From the NCBI GenBank assembly GCA_963843585.1, contig CAWJLJ010000003.1, forward strand, positions 107,075 to 171,074: DNA of 64,000 bases, given 5' to 3'. The notes under the pieces were generated by a model. The model worked only from the letters and a program-made list of their open reading frames with translations, was not told where the DNA came from and searched no databases. Shown piece after piece: positions 36,683 to 58,830 of the stretch. The translations under genes and the position numbers were made by a program. Source of the stretch: an uncultured Acidobacteriota bacterium. Lineage in GTDB: Bacteria > Actinomycetota > Acidimicrobiia > Spongiisociales > ZC4RG35. The stretch's first letter is position 1. Each line of letters begins with the position of its first letter.

Positions 36683-37820
36683 GTGGCTCTCCTGTTCTTC
36701 GTCAACGGGGTGGTCGTCGGAAGCTGGCTTCCCCGCCTTCCCGAGTTGAGGGACCGTCTCGGGATCGACCTGAGCACCCTCGGCCTCACTCTGGCCCTCG
36801 GCGGACTTGGGTCGCTGATCGGCTCATCTCTGAGCGGTCTCGTCGTGGGACGCTTCGGTGCTCGCCGGACGGCCGTGATTGCCGGGGCCGCGGTCTATGT
36901 CGTTCTCCCCCTCATTGCTGTCGCCCCCGTGGCCCTGGTGCTCGCGCTGGTTCTTGCGATCATCGGCTTCATCGACGCCCAAGCCGACGTCGGGATGAAC
37001 GCCGTCGGGGTCCGGGTCGAGGAGGCCGTGGGCCGGTCGGTGATGACGAGGCTGCATGGCTTGTGGAGCTTGGGCACACTGCTCGGCTCGGGCTTCAGCG
37101 CGCTGGCCGTCCTGGTGGGGATCGAATTGGGAATCCAACTTCTGATCGTCTCGGTGATCGGTCTGGTTACCGCCCTGTATGCCGCACGCCTGATCCCGGA
37201 AACCGCTCCCCGTCGTCGCGAGGGAGAGCGGTCCGGCCGTCTCGCCCTCGGACTGATGCTGGCCGGCGGTTTTGCCGTGTTCATAGAAGGCGCGCCATTC
37301 GACTGGAGCGCCCTCTTTCTCGTCGACATCACCGGGACCGGAGAGGCCCTGGCGGGGACGGGTGTCATCGTCTTCACCGGGGGGATGCTGATCGGTCGCC
37401 TCGCCGGCGATCACGTGGTCGATCGATTCGGGGCGATTCCGACCCTGTACGCCGGCATCGTCGTCTCGGTGGTCGCTTGCTTGTTTGTGGTCGGGCTCCA
37501 GACAGTGGTGACGTCGTTGATCGGCTTCGCCGTCTGGGGACTGGGCATCTCGGTCGCATCTGCCGGTGCTGTACAAGCTGGCCGGATCACATCGCTCCTT
37601 TGGAGAAGGGTCGGGTCTGGCCGCTCTCACCGTCGGCACCCGTCTCGGGTTCATGGTCGCCCCAGCGCTGATCGGCGTCGCCGCCACCGCTTGGTCCCTG
37701 CCGGTCGCATTGGGCGTGATCGTCACGCTCGCTGCGGTCGCCACGCTTCTCGCTGTCCGACTCACCATCGGCCGGCCCATCCCGGTGGGGGATTCCCTTC
37801 CCGGGGATGCGGTCTCATAA
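36683..37820 (+). CDS. MFS transporter, 1 frameshift
   Basis: Eleven to twelve hydrophobic helices. The last two are in ORF 37566..37820 (LYKLAGSHRSFGEGSGLAALTVGTRLGFMVAPALIG). The break is near 37560. Confidence 0.75.
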
Positions 37821-37848
37821 TGTGTGCTCAACCGATCCGGGAAATGGC

Positions 37849-39174
37849 GTGAACAAGCAGGCCGAATATGTCATGCGCACCGTCGAGGAGCGTGGGATCA
37901 GATTCATCAGGCTCTGGTTCACCGACGTCCAAGGCTTCCTCAAGTCGGTATCGATCAGCCCGGCCGAGCTCGAGGTTGCGTTCGAGGAGGGAATGACCTT
38001 CGACGGATCGGCCATCGACGGGTACGCCCGTATCCAGGAAGCCGACATGCTGGCCCGACCCGACCCGTCGACCTTTGGGGTGCTCCCCTGGCGCACCGAA
38101 CAGCAGGTGGCTCGGATGTTCTGTGACATCGCCACACCCGATGGCGAGCCTTTCTCGGGCGACCCCCGGATCGTCCTCAAGCGGAACCTGGGCCGCGCCT
38201 CGGAGATGGGATACAACTTCTACGCCGCGCCGGAGCTCGAGTTCTTCTACTTCAGGGACTCCGGGCCCGAGCCCGAGGTGCTCGACCACGGGGGCTATTT
38301 CGACATGACTCCGCTCGACGTCGCCCAGGACTACCGGAGAGACACGATCAACGCGCTGGAGCAGATGGGCATCCCGATCGAGCATTCCCATCACGAGGTA
38401 GCGCCCAGCCAGCACGAGATCATCGCCCGCTACACCGATGCGCTGACGATGGCCGACACCATCATGACCTCACGCCTGACGGTCAAGGAAGTGGCCCTGA
38501 AGCATGGGATCTACGCCACGTTCATGCCGAAGCCGCTCGAGGAACACGACGGCTCGGGCATGCACCTGCATCTGTCTCTCTTCGAGGATGATGTCAACGC
38601 GTTCCACGAGCCGGGGACCCCGGGCGGCCTGTCCAAGATCGGCCAAGCGTTCATCTCCGGCATCCTCCGCCATGCCGCAGAGATGACCGCGATCACGAAC
38701 CAATGGGTCAATTCCTACAAACGGCTGGTCGACGGCTTCGACGCACCCATCTACATCTCCTGGGCCCGCAACAACCAATCGGCTCTGGTGAGGGTTCCGA
38801 CGGTGAAGAAGGGCAAGCCATCGAGTGTCCGCGTGGAGTATCGGGCCGCCGACGCCGCCTGCAACCCCTACCTGACACTTTCGGTGATCCTCGCGGCAGG
38901 GTTGGCAGGCATCAAGGAGGGATACGAGCTGCCACCCGAGATCTCGGCCAACATCCATCTCATGACGCCGGCCGAACGCGCCGCCGCCGGGGCGAAGCGC
39001 CTCCCCGAGACTTTGTCCGAGGCGCTCGACCTCATGGAGGGGTCCGAGCTGATCGCAGAGGCCCTCGGGGAGCATGTCTTCGACTGGTTCCTCCGCAACA
39101 AGCGCAAGGAGTGGGACCGCTATCAGCACCACGTCTCGCGCTTCGAGCTAGAGAGCTATCTGCCGGTCCTGTGA
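37849..39174 (+). CDS. glnA: type I glutamine synthetase (GlnA2-like)
   Basis: Intact from GTG 37849. Motifs IRFIRLWFTDVQGFLKSV, EVAPSQHEI, NSYKRLV and SALVRVP. Confidence 0.9.
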   Translation: MNKQAEYVMRTVEERGIRFIRLWFTDVQGFLKSVSISPAELEVAFEEGMTFDGSAIDGYARIQEADMLARPDPSTFGVLPWRTEQQVARMFCDIATPDGEPFSGDPRIVLKRNLGRASEMGYNFYAAPELEFFYFRDSGPEPEVLDHGGYFDMTPLDVAQDYRRDTINALEQMGIPIEHSHHEVAPSQHEIIARYTDALTMADTIMTSRLTVKEVALKHGIYATFMPKPLEEHDGSGMHLHLSLFEDDVNAFHEPGTPGGLSKIGQAFISGILRHAAEMTAITNQWVNSYKRLVDGFDAPIYISWARNNQSALVRVPTVKKGKPSSVRVEYRAADAACNPYLTLSVILAAGLAGIKEGYELPPEISANIHLMTPAERAAAGAKRLPETLSEALDLMEGSELIAEALGEHVFDWFLRNKRKEWDRYQHHVSRFELESYLPVL

Positions 39175-39184
39175 ATCCCGCCCT

Positions 39185-39820
39185 GTGAACGTCGCCATCC
39201 ACCCTCCCGACTGCTCGGAGAGCATCCTCGACGGGTTGCTCCTGGCCGGGGCGACCCATGTCGCGGCCCCCGAGCTGGTGCCCGAGGAACGTGTGATCAA
39301 CGACGCCGACATCCTCTTGGTCGAGCTCGGCGACCAGCCGATCCGGCGTCTGCGAGAGGTGACCCGGATCGTGGAGGAGATCGGACTGCCCGTCATACTC
39401 GCCATCTCCCTCGACCAACTCGCTCTCGTCGATTCCACGAGCGGCATCTCCGACTTCATCACGGCCCCGGTCGACCCGCTCGAGCTCAGGCTGCGCGTCC
39501 AGCGGCTGAACAAGGAAGAGCAGACTGACGATCTGGTGGTGTTCAAGGACCTCGAGTTGAACACCCTCAATTACCAGGCCACGCTGGCCTCCAAGCCGAT
39601 CGACCTCACCTTCATGGAGTACGAACTGCTTCGATTCCTGGTCGCGAATCCGATCCGTGTCTGGTCCCGGGAACAGCTTCTCTCCAAGGTCTGGGGTTAC
39701 GACTACTACGGCGGCGCACGCACCGTCGATGTCCATATCCGTCGCCTCCGCTCCAAGCTCGGCGAGGAGCGCGCCTCCTGGATCACGACCGTCCGCTCCG
39801 TGGGGTACCGCTTCGGGTAG
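39185..39820 (+). CDS. atypical OmpR-family orphan response regulator, GlnR-like
   Basis: The winged-helix C-terminus is canonical (LTFMEYELLRFLVANP, WGYDYYGGARTVDVHIRRLRSKLG, VRSVGYRF). The receiver lacks the N-terminal acidic pair and the conserved Lys (DFITAPV), and has Glu at the phospho-acceptor position (ILLVELG). It lies directly downstream of glnA. Confidence 0.7.
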   Translation: MNVAIHPPDCSESILDGLLLAGATHVAAPELVPEERVINDADILLVELGDQPIRRLREVTRIVEEIGLPVILAISLDQLALVDSTSGISDFITAPVDPLELRLRVQRLNKEEQTDDLVVFKDLELNTLNYQATLASKPIDLTFMEYELLRFLVANPIRVWSREQLLSKVWGYDYYGGARTVDVHIRRLRSKLGEERASWITTVRSVGYRFG

Positions 39821-39832
39821 TTCGGGTGTAAC

Positions 39833-39886
39833 GGCGAACCTGAGGTTCTGCGACCCGGATACGGGCCGAATCGTCTCAGGTTCGCC
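39833..39886 (+). repeat. 54-nt structured quasi-palindromic intergenic element, copy A
   Basis: GGCGAACCTGAGGTTCTGCGACCCGGATACGGGCCGAATCGTCTCAGGTTCGCC. The outer stem is a 12-bp perfect pairing (GGCGAACCTGAG/CTCAGGTTCGCC). The inner hairpin is CCCG-GATA-CGGG. It contains the palindrome GAACCTGAGGTTC. Confidence 0.8.
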
Positions 39887-39917
39887 CCAACCAGCACCGA
39901 CCGACCACAATTGACCG

Positions 39918-41069
39918 ATGGGTTTCCGGACCAAGCAGGTACACGCCGGGGTGACGCCCGACCCGACCACCGGGGCGATCCTCACCCCCATCCACCAGTC
40001 GACGACCTTCGTCCAGGACTCGGTAGATGAGTACATGGGCAAGGGGTACTCCTACAGCAGGGGCGGGAACCCGACGGTGCGCGCCCTCGAGGAGAAGCTG
40101 ACCGCCCTGGAGGAAGGTCATGACACCACGGCCTATGCCTCCGGGATGGCGGCCACCGTCGCCGTCTTCCTCGGCCTCCTGCGGGCGGGGGACCACGTGA
40201 TCATTGCCGACGTCGTGTACGGGGGCACCTATCGATTCGCCGATCAGTTCCTCACCAAGTTCGGAGTCGACGTCACCTTCGCCGACGCCTCGGATGCAGA
40301 CAGAGTTGAAGCGGTGATGCGGCCCGAAACACGCATCGTCTTCACCGAGAGCCCGGCCAATCCGACGCTAAAGGTGACCGATCTGGCGGCCATCTCGGAG
40401 ATCACCCGATCGGCCGGCGCGCTTCATGTCACCGACAACACGTTCCTCACCCCCTACTTCCAGAAGCCGTTCCACCTCGGCGCCAACATCGTCATTCACT
40501 CGACGACCAAGTTCCTCGATGGTCACAACGCGACGCTCGGCGGGGCGGTGGTCGTCGACGACGAGGAGCTCCAGGAGAAGATCTCCTTCGCCCGCATCTC
40601 CGCCGGGCTGGTGATGTCGCCGATGGTGGCCTGGCTCACCTTGCAGGGAGTCAAGACATTGAGCGAGCGCATGGACCGGCAGTCGGCAAATGCCCTGACC
40701 ATCGCCGAGTGGCTTCGGGATCACCCCAAGGTCGACTACGTCAATTACCCGGGGCTGACGTCCCATCCGCAGTACGAGCTCTCGTCGCGTCAGGCCAGCG
40801 GGTTCGGCGCCCTGGTGTGCTTCGAGGTGCACGGCGGTGCGGAGACAGGCAAGAAGCTGATGGACGCGGTCGAGCTGTGGAGTCTCGCCGAGAATCTGGG
40901 TGCGGTGGAATCGCTGATCACCCACCCGGTCACGATGACCCACGCCGCGGTGCCGGCTGAGGAGAGGGTGGCCGCGGGCATCACCGACGGGCTGGTCCGG
41001 CTCTCGGTCGGGCTGGAAGACGTCGAGGACTTGATCGCGGACCTCGAATCCGCCCTCGATCGGGTCTAG
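39918..41069 (+). CDS. Cys/Met-metabolism PLP-dependent enzyme (cystathionine gamma-synthase/lyase family)
   Basis: Intact 383 aa. Motifs YSRGGNPT, ESPANPTL and HSTTKFLDGH (PLP lysine), with a C-terminal LVRLSVGLEDVEDLIADL. Confidence 0.9.
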   Translation: MGFRTKQVHAGVTPDPTTGAILTPIHQSTTFVQDSVDEYMGKGYSYSRGGNPTVRALEEKLTALEEGHDTTAYASGMAATVAVFLGLLRAGDHVIIADVVYGGTYRFADQFLTKFGVDVTFADASDADRVEAVMRPETRIVFTESPANPTLKVTDLAAISEITRSAGALHVTDNTFLTPYFQKPFHLGANIVIHSTTKFLDGHNATLGGAVVVDDEELQEKISFARISAGLVMSPMVAWLTLQGVKTLSERMDRQSANALTIAEWLRDHPKVDYVNYPGLTSHPQYELSSRQASGFGALVCFEVHGGAETGKKLMDAVELWSLAENLGAVESLITHPVTMTHAAVPAEERVAAGITDGLVRLSVGLEDVEDLIADLESALDRV

Positions 41070-48180: not shown

Positions 48181-48950
48181 GTGGGGTTGGTGGGCAGTGG
48201 GACGAGTACGGGCCCCGAAGAGGCTATCCGCCCTTCCTCAAACAGCAACACCAGGTGCGCCTCGACCGAACGGGCGGCGAGCGGGTGCAGCGCACGATCG
48301 ACGTCCCGATAGACGACCTCGACGATCTCATCGGTAGAGCCGGCGCCGGCCCGGATCGCCTCCAATATCTCCTCATGCCGCTGACGACGATGGGCCAGAT
48401 ACCAATCGATCACGTCGTCGGGACGGTCCATTTCATCGCCGTGACCGGGATTCAGCCTGCTCAGACCCGTCCCACGGAGTTTTTCCAGCGAGGCCAGATA
48501 GCTGCCCATGTCTTCCACCATCACCGAGGATCCGCCCATTATGTGATCGCCGGTGAAGAGAACGTCGGCCAATCGGAAACACAGGTGGTCGTCGGCGTGA
48601 CCCGGAGTGTGGATCACCTCGAGCCGGCTCTCGCCGATATCGATCACAGAGCCTTCGCCGATGCGCAGGTCGGGGTCGAAGGCGGGGCCTGGCGCATACC
48701 CGTAGGCGGGAACACCCAGCTCTCGGGCCAGGGGGTTGGCCAGCGGGGCATGGTCGGAATGGGTGTGTGTGACCAGGACCCCGAGTGGGGTCAGCCGGGC
48801 TGTCTGCTCCACGATCCGATCGCCGTGGACGTCGTCCACCGGGCCGGGGTCGATCACGACGCATCCCCCGCTGTCATCCACGAGCCACGTGTTGGTCCCA
48901 GACCCCGTGAAGGGCCCCGGATTGTTGGCGAGGATCCGTTGGATTCGCAT
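48177..48950 (-). CDS. MBL-fold metallo-hydrolase
   Basis: From ATG 48950 (MRIQRILANNPGPFTG), with THTHSDH and TPGHADDH. The listed ORF overextends upstream. Confidence 0.85.
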   Translation of the reverse strand: MRIQRILANNPGPFTGSGTNTWLVDDSGGCVVIDPGPVDDVHGDRIVEQTARLTPLGVLVTHTHSDHAPLANPLARELGVPAYGYAPGPAFDPDLRIGEGSVIDIGESRLEVIHTPGHADDHLCFRLADVLFTGDHIMGGSSVMVEDMGSYLASLEKLRGTGLSRLNPGHGDEMDRPDDVIDWYLAHRRQRHEEILEAIRAGAGSTDEIVEVVYRDVDRALHPLAARSVEAHLVLLFEEGRIASSGPVLVPLPTNPT

Positions 48951-49642
48951 CAGTCGTCTGCGGGGAGGTGGATGGGCACGAAGCTGCCGTCCTCCATGCG
49001 TCTTGGCTCGACCAGGGAACGGGCGTCGGCACCACTTGCGGCGTTGACGGCATCGTGAACCGTGGCTCTTCGCTCCAGCCAGCGAAGATGGGCGATGGTG
49101 GGCAGAAACATCTCCAAACCTCCATCGGCATGCATGACGAGGGCATCGCCTGGTGCGACCCACATGTGTTCGACCAGTTCATCGCCGTCGATGCGGATGT
49201 CCGGCGTGCCCCCGGCGATGGCCAGATAGAAACGTGTGTCGTACCGGGTTGGAGCCTCCTCGGGAGTGACCCAGCGGGAAACGAGGGTCAGCGCCGACGC
49301 GTCCAGCCGGATCCCGGCTGCGCGCATGGTGGAGAGCAAGCCTTCGCCGCGTCCGTCGGGGGCCGAGGCCACTCCATCGATGGTCAAGGCGAGACCGGTC
49401 TCCTCGGCCAGTTCTCGAAGGGCAGCGACCCGGAACTCCTGGTCAGGGTGGTCGCCGGGCACCACATCGCCGGCCAGCCCGGACGCATCTACGGCCTCGA
49501 CCGCCCCGCCGGGGAAGACGGTCAGGCCACCGAAGAAGCCCCGGGGTCGGCGGCGAACCATGAGCACCTCGATCCCTGCCCCGGTATCCCTGATCAGCAT
49601 CACGGTTGCCGCGGGGCGAGCTTCGACCAGAGGCGCCTCCAT
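48950..49642 (-). CDS. NUDIX hydrolase
   Basis: Intact 230 aa. The Nudix box is GGAVEAVD..AALRELAEETGL. Confidence 0.8.
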   Translation of the reverse strand: MEAPLVEARPAATVMLIRDTGAGIEVLMVRRRPRGFFGGLTVFPGGAVEAVDASGLAGDVVPGDHPDQEFRVAALRELAEETGLALTIDGVASAPDGRGEGLLSTMRAAGIRLDASALTLVSRWVTPEEAPTRYDTRFYLAIAGGTPDIRIDGDELVEHMWVAPGDALVMHADGGLEMFLPTIAHLRWLERRATVHDAVNAASGADARSLVEPRRMEDGSFVPIHLPADD

Positions 49643-49667
49643 CCCGGCATCCTAGGAACGCGACAGT

Positions 49668-49721
49668 GGCGAACCTCAGGTTCTCCGGCCCACATACGGG
49701 CCAATCGCCTCAGGTAGCCGC
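49668..49721 (+). repeat. 54-nt structured intergenic element, copy B
   Basis: GGCGAACCTCAGGTTCTCCGGCCCACATACGGGCCAATCGCCTCAGGTAGCCGC. By hand alignment it is roughly 80% identical to copy A, with one 1-nt indel. The inner hairpin GGCCC-ACATAC-GGGCC is preserved. Confidence 0.75.
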
Positions 49722-49737
49722 TGACCAGTCAGCGCAC

Positions 49738-49792
49738 GACGAACCTGAGGCGGTTGGTTTCATATCCGGGTCGTGGAACCTGAGGTTCGCAG
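49738..49792 (-). repeat. 54-nt structured intergenic element, copy C (inverted orientation)
   Basis: The reverse complement is CTGCGAACCTCAGGTTCCACGACCCGGATATGAAACCAACCGCCTCAGGTTCGTC. It matches copy A at about 41 of 54 positions by hand alignment. Confidence 0.7.
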
Positions 49793-49818
49793 TAGGACGG
49801 ACCTGGCAGACTTGCCCG

Positions 49819-51162
49819 GTGGCTTCCAGCGACAATCCGTATCGGGGGCTCCCGCCGGTCGACCAGGTGGTCGACGGGCTAGGCGAGACCGCTCTCCCCA
49901 GACTGCTCATCGTCGATTGCGCCCGATCGGCGCTCGACCTCGCCCGCGCCGAGATCGCCAGTGGCGGTGAGCCCGACGTGAGCCGCATCGCCGCCGACCT
50001 GGCGGCCGGGCTGCGGCGGTCGGCAAGCCACAAGGTGATCAACGCCACCGGAGTGCTCCTGCACACCAATCTCGGTCGAGCCCCTCTCTCGCCTGGAGCC
50101 GCCGAGTCCGCGCTGAAGGCAGCCGTCTCCTACACCAATCTCGAGCTCGATCTCGACGACGGAGAACGCGGAGGTCGCGGGGGGTACCTACGTGCTCTCC
50201 TGCAGACACTCACCGGTGCCGAAGACGGTCTCGTCGTCAACAACAACGCGGCGGCGGTGCTGCTCGCCCTGGCCGCCACCGCCTCGGGGCGGGCCGTCCC
50301 GGTGGCCAGAGGGGAGCTCATCGAAATCGGCGGATCGTTCCGGCTCCCATTGGTGATGGAAGCGGGCGGCGCACGACTCGTCGAGGTCGGGACCACCAAT
50401 CGAACCCGGATTGGCGACTACGCCACCGCTCTCCAGATCCACGACTGCGGAGCGGTCTTGAAGGTGCATCCCTCCAACTTCCGGGTCGATGGATTCGTCG
50501 CTGATGTGCCTGTTCGAGATCTGGCCGAGCTCGCTCACGACCAAGACGTCCCGCTGATCCACGATCTCGGGTCTGGCTTGCTCGACAGCGACACTCCGTG
50601 GCTCGGCACCAAGCCCCCCTGGTTGTCCGGAGAGCCGGGGGCCCGCCAGTCGATCGAGGCGGGAGCCGACCTGGTCACCTTCAGCGGCGACAAGCTGGTC
50701 GGCGGGCCACAGGCGGGCATCATCGTCGGCTCCGCCGAGGCGGTTGACCAGCTCCGGCGCAATCCGCTCGCCCGGGCCTTGAGGATCGACGCCATGACCG
50801 ATGCCGCCCTGGCCGTGACGCTCGAGGCCTACGCCAACGGCGAGGCCAATCGGATCCCGATATGGCAGATGGCGACGCTGAGTGAGTCGGACCTCGCGGC
50901 CAGAGTGGACGCTCTTGCCGCCCGGGTTGGAGGAGTGGCCCGGCCCGGAGAATCCGTCGTTGGGGCGGGCAGCCTCCCCGGAGTGGGCATTCCGACACCA
51001 CAGATCGTCCTGAAGGATGAGGACCATCTCCATGGCCGTCTTCTCGGGGCCAACCACCCGGTCCTGACCCGGAGGATGGAAAAGGACCTGATCCTCGACC
51101 TCCGAGCAGTGGCCGAGGAAGACGACGATGTGATCGCGGACATGGTGGCCGGTTGCCGCTGA
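49819..51162 (+). CDS. selA: L-seryl-tRNA(Sec) selenium transferase
   Basis: Intact from GTG 49819. Motifs [25 protein letters not shown] and [17 protein letters not shown] (PLP lysine). Confidence 0.9.
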
Positions 51163-52908
51163 TCGGGACCGCGGGCCATGTCGACCACGGCAAGTCGACC
51201 CTGGTCGAGGCGCTCACCGGACGTGACCCCGACCGCTGGGCCGAAGAGAAGGAACGCGGGCTGACCATCGATCTCGGGTTCGCCTGGACCACACTCGGAT
51301 CCGCGGGCGAGGTCTCGTTCGTCGACGTGCCCGGGCACGAGCGGTTCCTGAAGAACATGCTCGCCGGGATCGAGGCCATCGACGTCGCATTGTTCGTCGT
51401 GGCCGCCGACGAGGGCTGGATGCCGCAGTCCGAAGAGCATCTGGCCGTGCTCGACCTCCTTGGGCATCGCTTCGGGCGTCATCGCCCTGACCAAGATCGA
51501 CGCCGTCGACCCGGCGGTCGCCGCAGAAGTCGAGATCGAGATCGCGCAGGAACTGGTCGGCACCACGCTGGAAACGGCACCGATCATCCCGGTATCGGCC
51601 AGGACAGGTGAGGGTATGGATCGGCTGCGGGAGGAACTCGCGGCGCGAGTGGCCGATATTCAGCATGGTGGTGACCGGCCGCGGCTGTGGGTCGACCGGG
51701 CCTTCTCGGTTCGAGGCGCGGGCACGGTGGTGACGGGGACTTTGACCGAAGGCCCGCTGAAGGTCGGGGACCATCTCGAGTTGCTGCCGGGCGGCAAACG
51801 GGGCCGGATTCGCGGCATGCAGAGCCATGAGAGTGAGATCGAGACGGCCGAACCGGGGCGACGGCTCGCCTTGAACCTGACAGGAATAGATCGCGAGGAA
51901 GCCTCTCGTGGAACGATGCTGGGCCTGCCCGGTCAGTGGGAGCCGTCGGCTCGATTCACCGCATTGCTGACAGCAGCCCGATACATCGATGCTCTCTCCA
52001 CCCGAGGAGCTTTCCACATCCATCTGGGCAGCGGTGCCCACTCCGCAACGATCAAACGGCTGGAGGACGGGTATGCCTTGATCGAGGTCCCCGTGGCCCT
52101 GCCGATGAGAACCGGCGATCGCTTCATCCTGAGGGAAGCCGGACGTCGTCAAGTGGTCGCCGGCGGCACGGTGATCGATCCGGCACCCGGGTCACCTTCC
52201 CGGGCGATGGCGACGGCACGGCTCATCGACCCATTGGCCGGGAGGGATGATGTCGCGACGGCGCTCCTGGGGGTGCGCGGAATGGACGACGTCGAGCGTC
52301 TTGCCGCGCACAGTGGTGGAGGGCACCCGCAGGGATCGGTCCTGGTCGGCGACACTGCTCTGACCCACGAACGCTTCGATGAGCTCCGGTCTCGGGCGGA
52401 AGCGATCGTCACCGAGCATCACGAGCAGCATCCGCTCCGGCCAGGAATTCCGTTGGCGACACTCTCGGCAACTCTCGGCACGTCGCCCGAGTTGGCTGAG
52501 CTCCTCGTCGAGAGGAGCGATCAGATCGTTCGCAGTGGCCCTGACGTCTCGACCCGACAGCATCGTTCGAGCTTGGACCCGGATTCACAACTCAGGTGGG
52601 AGAAAGCTCGAGCCAGGTTGAGCGAGAGCTTGGCGGTGCCTGACGCCGACGCACTCGGTCTGGGCGACGAGCTGATCCATTTGTTGATCAGGGAGGCCAG
52701 GCTGGTCCGTGTCTCCGACACCCTCGTCTATCTGCCCGAGCAGATCGAAGAGATCAAGCGAATGCTGGGTGAGATGACAGAGCCATTCACCGTGGCCCGT
52801 TTCCGCGACCACACCGGGCTGTCACGGAAGTACGTGGTGCCCATCCTCGAGTGGGCGGATAGAGAAGGGCTCACCATCCGGCGGGGCGATGTGCGCCACC
52901 TTCGGTGA
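51153..52908 (+). CDS. selB: selenocysteine-specific translation elongation factor SelB, 1 frameshift
   Basis: The TTG start overlaps the selA end. It reads [20 protein letters not shown] and DVPGHERF, then shifts near 51462 (extra G in a G run) to ORF 51460..52908. The C-terminal winged-helix region contains [27 protein letters not shown]. Confidence 0.85.
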
Positions 52909-57123: not shown

Positions 57124-57203
57124 GGTTCGACTCTGCACACCGCCACCAAGCATCGCGGGCTAATCACCCCGATGCACCGTCGTGGGGCTGCGAACCTGAG
57201 AGC

Positions 57204-57816
57204 ATGGATGCCCCGGAGCTGATCGCAGTCAGGGCGGCCCTGGCGGAGGGCGCCGAGCCGAGCACGGTTGTGCTCGTCGAAGGTGCCAGCGACCAGGCAG
57301 CTCTACAGACTCTGGCCGGACGCTATGGCCGGGACCTAACAGCGGAAGGAGTCTCCATCGTCCCGATGGGAGGAGCGACGACCATCGGACATTTCCTCGA
57401 CCTGCTCGGCCCAAATGGCCACGACTATCAGACTTGCCGGGCTCTGTGACGCCGGAGAAGAGGGCGACTTCAGACGCGAGCTGGAGCGGGCCGGCATGGG
57501 CATCCACCCGACTCGGGACGATCTGGAGTCCGTCGGGTTCTTCGTCTGCGTCGCCGACCTGGAGGATGAGCTGATCCGCGCCCTTGGGCCCGATGCGGTC
57601 GTGGAGATCATCGACGCCCACGGCGAGCTCGGGTCCCTTCGCATCCTGCAGCGACAGCCGTTCCACCGTGACCGCACCATCGAACAGGTCCTGTGGCGCT
57701 TCATGGGCTCCCGGTCCGGACGCAAGTCCACCTATGCCCGCCTGCTCGTCGAGGCATTGGATCTGGATCGCGTGCCACCACCGTTGGACGGTGTCCTGGA
57801 GTACGTGAAGCCCTAG
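57204..57816 (+). CDS. stand-alone TOPRIM domain protein (OLD-nuclease-like C-terminal module), 1 frameshift
   Basis: VVLVEGASDQAALQTLA..SIVPMGGATT, then ORF 57415..57816 (RLAGLCDAGEE, FVCVADLEDELIRALG). The break is near 57425. Confidence 0.65.
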
Positions 57817-58741: not shown

Positions 58742-58756
58742 ACCTGGGTTTCTGAG

Positions 58757-58830
58757 TCGGGACGGCGGGATTCGAACCCACGACCTCAGCGTCCCGAACG
58801 CTGCGCGCTACCAAGCTGCGCCACGTCCCG
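58757..58830 (-). tRNA. tRNA-Pro (anticodon CGG)
   Basis: The minus strand reads CGGGACGTGGCGCAGCTTGGTAGCGCGCAGCGTTCGGGACGCTGAGGTCGTGGGTTCGAATCCCGCCGTCCCGA. It folds as a full cloverleaf with a 7-bp acceptor stem, anticodon loop TTCGGGA and T-loop TTCGAAT. CCA is not encoded. Confidence 0.95.

Follow-up and report, generated by a model that had tools for sequence, protein, structure and literature searches.

A low-copy, apparently REP/REPIN-like family of palindromic intergenic repeats in uncultured Acidimicrobiia

The 64,000-nt window analysed here (contig CAWJLJ010000003.1 of assembly GCA_963843585.1, positions 107,075 to 171,074) carries, back to back, a gene for a NUDIX hydrolase and selA, which encodes L-seryl-tRNA(Sec) selenium transferase, and the short region between these divergent genes is filled by two copies, B and C, of a structured element arranged as an inverted pair (a 'doublet'). 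A third copy, A, stands alone (a 'singlet') 12 nt past the stop codon of a gene for a GlnR-like OmpR-type response regulator and upstream of the putative -10 box of a gene for a Cys/Met-metabolism pyridoxal phosphate (PLP) enzyme, both neighbours being assigned by Pfam.

These units belong to a previously undescribed family (a literature search found no such family described in this actinobacterial class, and a search with the palindrome sequence returned no relevant paper), which is restricted to one lineage, uncultured soil Acidimicrobiia. The element does not serve as a switch specific to selA or the NUDIX operon. On balance, and with little to spare, we read B and C as members of a family of palindromic intergenic repeats, low in copy number, specific to the lineage and akin to the REP (repetitive extragenic palindromic) and REPIN elements, that would be kept up at the DNA level by a genome-encoded factor.

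Units A, B and C in the window

A preliminary description of the region, made from the sequence alone, had drawn attention to the pair and to its kinship with A, and its account of the sequences stands: all three units (~54 nt each) lie where it put them and read as it gave them (Table 1), and the identities to A that it estimated by hand, about 80% for B and 75% for C, come out in global alignment at 80.0% (A-B) and 76.4% (A-C, reverse-complemented), with 71.4% between B and reverse-complemented C and a mean column identity of 81% in the three-way alignment. Over 15 nt, B and C have exactly complementary outer arms (GCGAACCTCAGGTTC), a second, inner pairing of 10 nt joins CGCCTCAGGT and ACCTGAGGCG, and the apex GCTGACCAGTCAGC (49720-49733) is a palindrome of 6+2+6 nt, all as described there. 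Pfam upholds the identities proposed for the NUDIX and selA genes, from whose start codons (ATG at 49642 on the minus strand, GTG at 49819) B and C stop 25 and 26 nt away, respectively.

Table 1. Units, palindromes, neighbouring genes and putative promoter boxes in the window; the -10 boxes are predicted from sequence.
Feature	Position	Strand	Remarks
Unit A	39833..39886	+	singlet: 5' palindrome, central hairpin, 3' arm; covariance-model score 77.3 bits
Palindrome P of unit A	39836..39848	no strand	GAACCTGAGGTTC; perfect over 13 nt, best-conserved part of the family
Putative -10 box, Cys/Met PLP enzyme gene	39906..39911	+	CACAAT, 6 nt before ATG, downstream of unit A
NUDIX hydrolase gene	48950..49642	-	left neighbour of doublet; Pfam PF00293, E = 8e-11
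Putative -10 box, NUDIX operon	49649..49654	-	TAGGAT, 6 nt before ATG
Unit B	49668..49721	+	left unit of inverted doublet; 52.3 bits
Palindrome P of unit B	49671..49683	no strand	GAACCTCAGGTTC; outer left end of doublet
Spacer between B and C	49722..49737	no strand	holds most of the small palindrome GCTGACCAGTCAGC
Unit C	49738..49792	-	right unit of doublet; 68.6 bits; orthologues in three relatives (L021, L030, L043)
Palindrome P of unit C	49776..49788	no strand	GAACCTGAGGTTC on the plus strand; outer right end of doublet
Putative extended -10 box, selA	49804..49812	+	TGGCAGACT, 6 nt before GTG
selA	49819..51162	+	right neighbour of doublet; Pfam PF03841, E = 1e-109

The occurrence of these three units is not a matter of chance: the 13-nt palindrome has three exact matches in the window, all within A, B and C, and AACCTSAGGTT (S, G or C) is found three times, where 0.0 +/- 0.1 occurrences are expected. 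A covariance model run with its filters off found no further unit in the window. All three units are highly structured, A folding at -34.6 kcal/mol (z -5.3 against shuffles), B at -29.2 kcal/mol (z -5.2) and the B+C pair at -81.3 kcal/mol on the plus strand (z -8.0) and -79.2 kcal/mol on the minus strand (z -8.1). The 3' arm of B is partly degenerate (CTCAGGTAGCC), and the centre of C is a hybrid, ACCCGG-ATAT-GAAAC, that cannot pair with itself. A scan for intrinsic terminators called nothing at either window locus; the hairpins have no U-tract, and their 3' flanks are rich in G+C.

Two further features of the window may be recorded here. Directly 5' of a possible ATG at 57204, the sequence TGCGAACCTGAGAG (57189-57203) reproduces the initial 12 nt of the 5' arm, perhaps as the remnant of a decayed unit. 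Downstream of selA comes a gene whose counterpart in relatives is assigned by Pfam to selB (GTP_EFTU and SelB domains; window 49819-52908, L065 19042-21152, stretches from other genomes and metagenomes being cited by L-numbers), and the source organism therefore probably makes selenoproteins; no tRNA-Sec gene was found in the window, whose sole tRNA gene is that of tRNA-Pro(CGG) (58756-58830, minus strand).

Distribution, anatomy and genomic context of the family

Scanning one genome per species with the exact pattern of both arms recovered 33 stretches, ~29 of them in Acidimicrobiia-type metagenome-assembled genomes (MAGs), at 1-4 exact matches per genome; two complete chromosomes hold only 2 and 1. 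The same pattern matched 26 metagenomic stretches, ~18 of them true members and most of these from soil, and no plasmid, phage or viral contig. The family is present in ~20 Acidimicrobiia MAG species and in soil metagenomes. Some of the bins are deposited as 'Acidobacteriota', and their proteins are 88-97% identical to those of bins labelled Acidimicrobiia.

The exact pattern sees only part of the family. When a covariance model built from 32 units was applied to the flanks of the matches, partner units were found adjoining many of the seeds, and the pattern is matched exactly by only 1 of 11 such partners; additional independent sites numbered 3-4 in ~350 kb of flanks, or about one per 100 kb. 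From these two figures, the few extra sites and the single exactly matching partner, we infer that a genome probably carries tens of sites, not hundreds. The preliminary description had allowed both for an isolated element and for a repeat in hundreds of copies in random contexts: further copies and conservation in relatives were found, and hundreds of copies in random contexts were not. Its failure to match the element to a tRNA or riboswitch holds, in that no Rfam family fits (gathering and permissive thresholds alike return only miRNA-type long-hairpin noise) and no tRNA or tmRNA lies at the site.

A few pattern matches were set aside. Those in Streptomyces (a genus) and an alphaproteobacterium (L003, L006), those in Mariniblastus and its marine twins, and those of L039 and L047 are likely to be chance matches or coding sequence. 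The Mariniblastus MAG and five marine contigs (L020, L040, L044, L051, L053, L058) share an identical pattern-matching stretch of ~80 nt, with a GC content of 48-49% and no central hairpin, which is probably part of a conserved coding sequence and has no relation to the family.

Each unit has the same layout, which reads, from 5' to 3', WAC-N-GCG, the palindrome GAACCT-S-AGGTTC, ~5 nt, a stem of 6-7 bp with an ATA(T)-type loop, another ~5 nt, and the 3' arm CTCAGGTTCG. The motif on the 5' side of the palindrome is weakly conserved (consensus A(-6) C(-5) N G C G ahead of AACCT), and the 22-25-nt spacer between palindrome and 3' arm retains its potential to form a hairpin but not its sequence. 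The 3' arm is an inverted, partial copy of the palindrome, replaced in some units by a second full palindrome. In 19 units whose sequence was not forced by the search pattern, AACCTSAGGTT is invariant, in contrast to a degenerate 3' arm. Only G and C occur at the central S, about equally often, and they show no covariation with the C that is fixed in the 3' arm; half of the units would therefore have a C-C mismatch in the outer helix of a putative RNA. This absence of covariation and the mismatch fit a symmetric site recognised as duplex DNA, and not a helix of RNA.

Units occur as singlets, with the terminal inverted repeats GGCGAACCTGAGG / CCTCAGGTTCGCC, or as inverted doublets, in which the palindromes form the outer ends. 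All 15 doublets (8 distinct loci) have their palindromes facing outward, the reverse arrangement never being seen; the spacers between their units are unrelated from locus to locus, and a doublet can fold as one long hairpin or as a cruciform. In ~300 kb of loci the palindrome was never found outside a unit.

Some units depart from this plan. Beside a unit in L017 (475-640), two partial copies of the 5' arm in tandem (GCGAACCTGAAGACA each) precede a complete palindrome and look like the outcome of slippage or abortive copying at the arm. The complete 3.25-Mb Acidimicrobiia chromosome OY970227 (L029, 4118-4299) has two full units in direct orientation, both with a full palindrome as 3' arm, and an extra palindrome with one mismatch just upstream (4121). 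A short variant (palindrome, 20 nt, CTCAGGTTCGC) at L032 7852-7899, identical in L050 and L052, lies apparently within an open reading frame (ORF) and could represent either a unit embedded in coding sequence or a match by chance.

All units with identified neighbours are intergenic, and they often lie 3-30 nt past stop codons, some of them 3 nt after both stops of convergent genes. The sites fall between convergent genes (EamA/CvpA, GDPD/ABC, prfB/GT2), between co-directional genes (GlnR-like/CGL, icd/nadA, rnj/ftsK) and, at NUDIX/selA, between divergent ones. Gene calls at most loci are crude ORF calls, checked with Pfam for a subset only; the neighbours identified by Pfam include an EamA transporter, CvpA, GDPD, an ABC ATPase, RF-2, a glycosyltransferase, isocitrate dehydrogenase, NadA, an AddB-like nuclease, CofE, FtsK, RNase J, ArsR-type regulators and an H+-pyrophosphatase, among others, and have no function in common. 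An apparent enrichment of ArsR-type regulators was discarded, all of the matches coming from one orthologous locus. The ~50 sampled sites represent ~22 distinct loci, the same loci being occupied in several genomes. On the crude gene calls, ~6 singlets are in sense and 3 in antisense orientation to transcription, a difference that is not significant.

At two places a pair of inverted single units brackets a gene that is not a transposase: a 401-aa aminotransferase-like gene in L038 (4568-5858) and a 105-aa ORF, cupin-like by eye, in L056 (1573-2181).

Orthologous loci, putative promoters and the central hairpin

Close relatives, with 83-97% protein identity, were compared at both window loci, around which synteny is conserved in every relative examined. 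Between the NUDIX and selA genes, the doublet is found in the window, L021, L030 and L043, and a singlet in L028, L042 and L014, each of which retains a remnant of the 3' arm of unit B. An empty spacer of 45 nt is found in L063, an indel-rich long-read assembly, and in the independent short-read MAG L065, which confirms the empty site and whose genes are intact, with a PLP enzyme 92-93% identical to that of the window. The site is also empty in the more distant L061. At the A locus, seven contigs have a singlet (window, L016, L018, L027, L036, L046, L057), L062 and L064 have a doublet, L063 and L065 a point-mutated remnant, and L060 and L061 nothing. In genomes that can be read at both loci, these are either both occupied (window, JARDZU) or both unoccupied (L063/L065, L061), and the fate of the element appears to be decided genome by genome.

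Since relatives with empty or decayed sites keep their genes intact, the element is, as judged from these comparisons, dispensable for selA, the NUDIX gene and the PLP enzyme gene, and the same series of sites indicates that decay runs from doublet to singlet to remnant.

Two observations concern the surroundings of these sites. The pentamer CGGAC occurs at the empty selA site (L063 18992-19036) once intact and once interrupted, as CGGAC-A-CGGATCGAC, and flanks the element on both sides in the genomes of some filled sites (compared with L028 1690-1798); the pattern could be an excision footprint or a coincidence. The A locus lies in a conserved string of genes, glnA, the GlnR-like orphan response regulator and the Cys/Met PLP enzyme (window 37807-41069; L060-L066), in which the gap between regulator and PLP enzyme is a hot spot: depending on the relative, it holds a gene for a methyltransferase or a DUF559 protein, an ORF of 145 aa, one unit or a doublet, or it is empty.

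Between the units and the start codons lie short blocks that are conserved whatever the state of the site. The TAGGAT block of the NUDIX operon does not vary among eight close relatives, whether they have the element or lack it; the TGGCAGACT box of selA is conserved in relatives at doublet, singlet and empty sites alike; and ahead of the PLP enzyme gene the block ACCACAATTG is conserved in the window, L016, L018, L027, L061, L062, L063, L064 and L065, reading ACCACAATTA in L066. Leaderless promoters are common in Actinomycetota, and the three blocks are probably the -10 boxes of such promoters. In genomes with an empty site the divergent -10 boxes are only ~16 nt apart, and it is exactly this gap that the doublet occupies. 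The near-symmetric spacing of 25-26 nt, in which the preliminary description saw a possible link to start codons, is therefore a tolerated site of insertion and no such link: it seems best explained by the sole insertion-tolerant stretch between two back-to-back core promoters. Since the -10-like boxes separate the element from the start codons, transcription from the NUDIX and selA promoters probably does not include the B+C doublet.

Compensatory change, for which the preliminary description had suggested looking, is apparent in the central stem: both sides have changed in six of its seven pairs, and the covariation score lies above that of 500 of 500 shuffles. The spacers fold at -6.6 and -6.2 kcal/mol on the two strands, against -3.4 kcal/mol for shuffles, with no difference between strands (Wilcoxon p=0.30). 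Certain centre types recur (GGCCCGG..CCGGGCC, GTTTCA..TGAAAC, GTAACG..CGTGAC and GTACCG..CGGTAC), and they follow the genome more than the locus. The stem distance (of 14) is 3.9 between units of the same genome at different loci, 4.8 between different genomes at the same locus and 6.8 between different genomes at different loci, a within-genome homogenisation of spacers with a permutation p<0.0005. At the A locus, the flanks of the window and L016 are ~94% identical, yet ~9 of ~22 central positions differ. Hybrid centres that do not pair, all of them in doublets, join ACCCGG-ATAT-GAAAC in C, L019, L005 and L026 and GTTCC-ATAT-CCGGGCC in L025, and several, including that of unit C, are conserved in orthologues.

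The equality of the strands, the conservation of centres that cannot pair and the tendency of centre types to track the genome argue against a strand-specific RNA. Changes in blocks are the expected product of template switching or gene conversion between palindromic copies, which mimics compensatory evolution without any RNA function; gene conversion and replication predict the same population signal within a genome. Rescue of the hybrid centres by G-U wobble pairs was considered as evidence for an RNA strand and rejected, the compatible strand being mostly antisense to the flanking genes.

Interpretation and alternatives

By analogy, the architecture and behaviour of the family appear to match those of REP and REPIN elements point by point. 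As in REP and BIME elements, each unit is a short imperfect palindrome confined to extragenic DNA; as in the REPs and REPINs of Proteobacteria, the centre of the palindrome marks orientation, units form higher-order inverted clusters, and they often lie just after stop codons and between convergent genes. REPINs have spacers that are not conserved yet always form hairpins, with the centre of the REP palindrome marking orientation, and their singlets are decaying remnants (PMC3337134). Two inverted palindromes likewise surround a sequence-variable, hairpin-forming spacer here, singlets appear as doublet remnants (L028, L042, L014, and the mutated remnant of L063 and L065), and sequences form populations within genomes with vertical inheritance. 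The differences are that the host belongs to the Actinomycetota (class Acidimicrobiia), that the 5' motif is WAC-N-GCG and not a GTAG or GT(A/G)G tetranucleotide, and that the conserved palindrome is perfect save for its single central G/C.

Other repeat systems resemble the family less closely. The ERIC (or IRU) element of Enterobacteria is a low-copy, imperfect intergenic palindrome of ~127 bp, highly conserved across related species at orthologous and non-orthologous sites, and has no known transposase or function. It shares with the present family its low copy number, palindromic form, intergenic position, conservation in related species and mixture of shared and unshared sites, but it is a single long palindrome of unrelated sequence and has no variable hairpin spacer. 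Miniature inverted-repeat transposable elements (MITEs) such as the Correia elements of Neisseria are small and intergenic, have terminal inverted repeats, form RNA hairpins and affect neighbouring transcripts. A miniature mobile repeat was the option of the preliminary description that comes closest, and its likeness lies in terminal inverted repeats, small size, intergenic position and capacity to form hairpins, as well as in a low-copy repeat polymorphic for presence and absence, doublet and singlet, and decay; the units are, however, far shorter (54 nt) than Correia elements and show neither a target-site duplication nor a parent insertion sequence (IS) with the same ends, and the palindrome is never found outside units. 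The attC sites of integrons have conserved outer inverted cores around a structured, variable centre, directly follow ORFs and are similar within a genome, in all of which the units resemble them, but the arms GCGAACC / GGTTCGC do not fit RYYYAAC / GTTRRRY, no cassette array or intI is present, and the neighbours are housekeeping genes in conserved synteny.

On the reading that we favour, the element acts at the DNA level. A putative genome-encoded factor, either a transposase-like enzyme or a DNA-binding protein, would recognise the palindrome, and template switching or gene conversion among copies would homogenise the spacers within a genome; where maintenance lapses, copies would decay stepwise, doublets becoming singlets and then remnants until nothing is left. 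The NUDIX/selA doublet would be tolerated, and not required, between two back-to-back and probably leaderless core promoters. Where units lie just past stop codons, as do unit A and many others, the transcribed hairpin may secondarily serve as a 3'-end stabiliser or weak terminator, as in REPs.

Several observations weigh against this reading. Comparison of filled with empty sites reveals no consistent target-site duplication or clean insertion junction, and no transposase of any kind was found beside the units. REPINs go with a single-copy gene, flanked by the repeats, for a RAYT (a Y1/HUH transposase); a search of the 562 kb read with the TnpA sequences of IS608 and IS200 found neither a RAYT nor another Y1/HUH protein, its one weak Y1 match being an out-of-frame translation of a thioesterase gene, and the recurrent gene families of the flanks include no Y1-like ORF. 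Classical REPs exceed the family in copy number by one to two orders of magnitude (hundreds against tens of sites), although some RAYT groups accompany only ~12-14 repeat copies (PMC5581495). A simple sigma-70 scan calls no promoter at either window locus. Shared loci are occupied even where the flanking proteins (EamA, GDPD) are only 71-78% identical, which suggests long persistence and could reflect selection at the level of the host over selfish spread. Conservation of the arms is in part a matter of ascertainment, the members having been found by an arm search, so that the unbiased evidence comes from the unforced partner units and the comparisons of orthologues.

The main rival to this reading holds that the units are a structural feature selected by the host and kept at a few dozen sites, whether as binding sites for a chromosomal protein (a nucleoid-associated protein, a gyrase-type topology factor or an insulator) or as bidirectional terminators or protectors of mRNA 3' ends. 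We regard it as unlikely, if by no means negligible, and it is compatible with the favoured reading, since REPs are also co-opted. The long-shared loci just mentioned speak for it, as do the collapse of ~50 sites to ~22 loci, the invariance of the AACCTSAGGTT core even in units that the search did not force, the many units 3-30 nt after stops and between convergent genes, and a hairpin equally good on both strands, as a bidirectional element needs. Against these stand the loss of the element at both window loci in close relatives with intact genes and promoters, and the missing U-tract, which means that the hairpins are no canonical terminators; B and C lie between divergent promoters, where there is no 3' end to protect, and selection acting site by site does not predict the homogenisation of spacers within a genome. 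The hybrid centres, which join halves of different types and are confined to doublets, could also be accommodated by sites for a recombinase or another DNA-processing enzyme that acts on the palindromic arms and exchanges strands in the AT-rich centre of the spacer, hybrid centres being the recombinants. The loops have the consensus ATA(T), and the overall symmetry is reminiscent of recombination sites. We nevertheless hold this improbable: no recombinase gene recurs beside the units, synteny is conserved at both window loci with no rearrangement ending at a unit, and template switching within a doublet accounts for the hybrids equally well.

The two regulatory readings raised in the preliminary description fare worse. 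An operator for a transcription factor, with the inverted pair as an array co-regulating selA and the divergent NUDIX operon, would suit a perfect 13-bp palindrome with a G/C-only centre, the overlap of the doublet with the -35 positions of both putative promoters, and one other site that, in three genomes, precedes a gene for an ArsR-type regulator. It is made highly improbable by the confinement of the palindrome to units, never alone, by the many promoter-less sites between convergent genes (some 3 nt after both stops), by the functionally unrelated flanking genes, and by the absence of the element from the same promoters in close relatives. A cis-regulatory RNA (a riboswitch or protein-binding leader) in the 5' leaders of selA, the NUDIX gene and the PLP enzyme gene is barely credible. 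Stable hairpins, the compensatory-looking changes of the central stem and the nearness of units to start codons at the NUDIX/selA locus would favour it, but template switching in palindromic DNA can yield covariation without RNA function, and the remaining evidence points the other way: no match in Rfam, flanking genes of unrelated function, most other copies at the 3' ends of genes, folding without strand bias, an outer stem mismatched in half of the units, and conserved centres that cannot pair. The -10-like boxes, 6 nt from the starts and downstream of the units, place the units probably upstream of the start of transcription, and in relatives whose neighbouring proteins are 92-93% identical the gap of 45 nt is empty.

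Four other candidates were discarded. A restriction-modification site (CCTNAGG, Bsu36I/SauI-type) is not avoided in the window, with 18 sites observed against 20 expected. A LexA (Cheo) box would have the spacing GAAC-N4-GTTC, not N5 as found here, and the neighbours are not SOS genes, as judged from the sequence. The Y-type centre GTTTCAC-ATA-TGAAAC resembles parS, but the other centre types do not, and a tRNA-like minihelix (GCC-CCA after unit A) was seen at the A locus only.

If the repeat family is indeed REP/REPIN-like and maintained at the DNA level, we may go a step further and suggest, tentatively and with more doubt than conviction, that it is the first REPIN-like system of Actinomycetota, run by a partner other than a classical RAYT that reads both the invariant 13-bp palindrome and a genome-specific hairpin spacer, with which the spacers would co-evolve; lineages that lose the partner would then lose all of their units in step, a pattern that the L063/L065 and L061 genomes appear to fit.

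For the biology of these organisms, the analysis removes a false lead, in that the element is not a selenium or selA riboswitch or operator, and adds a clean, low-copy population of REP/REPIN-like repeats from an uncultured actinobacterial class. The sites number only tens, and many are shared as orthologues by several species, which allows gain, decay and homogenisation to be traced one site at a time. Homogenisation of spacers within genomes, taken with coordinated loss across loci, leads to the prediction of a single trans-acting maintenance factor, which comparative genomics of the available MAGs could reveal.

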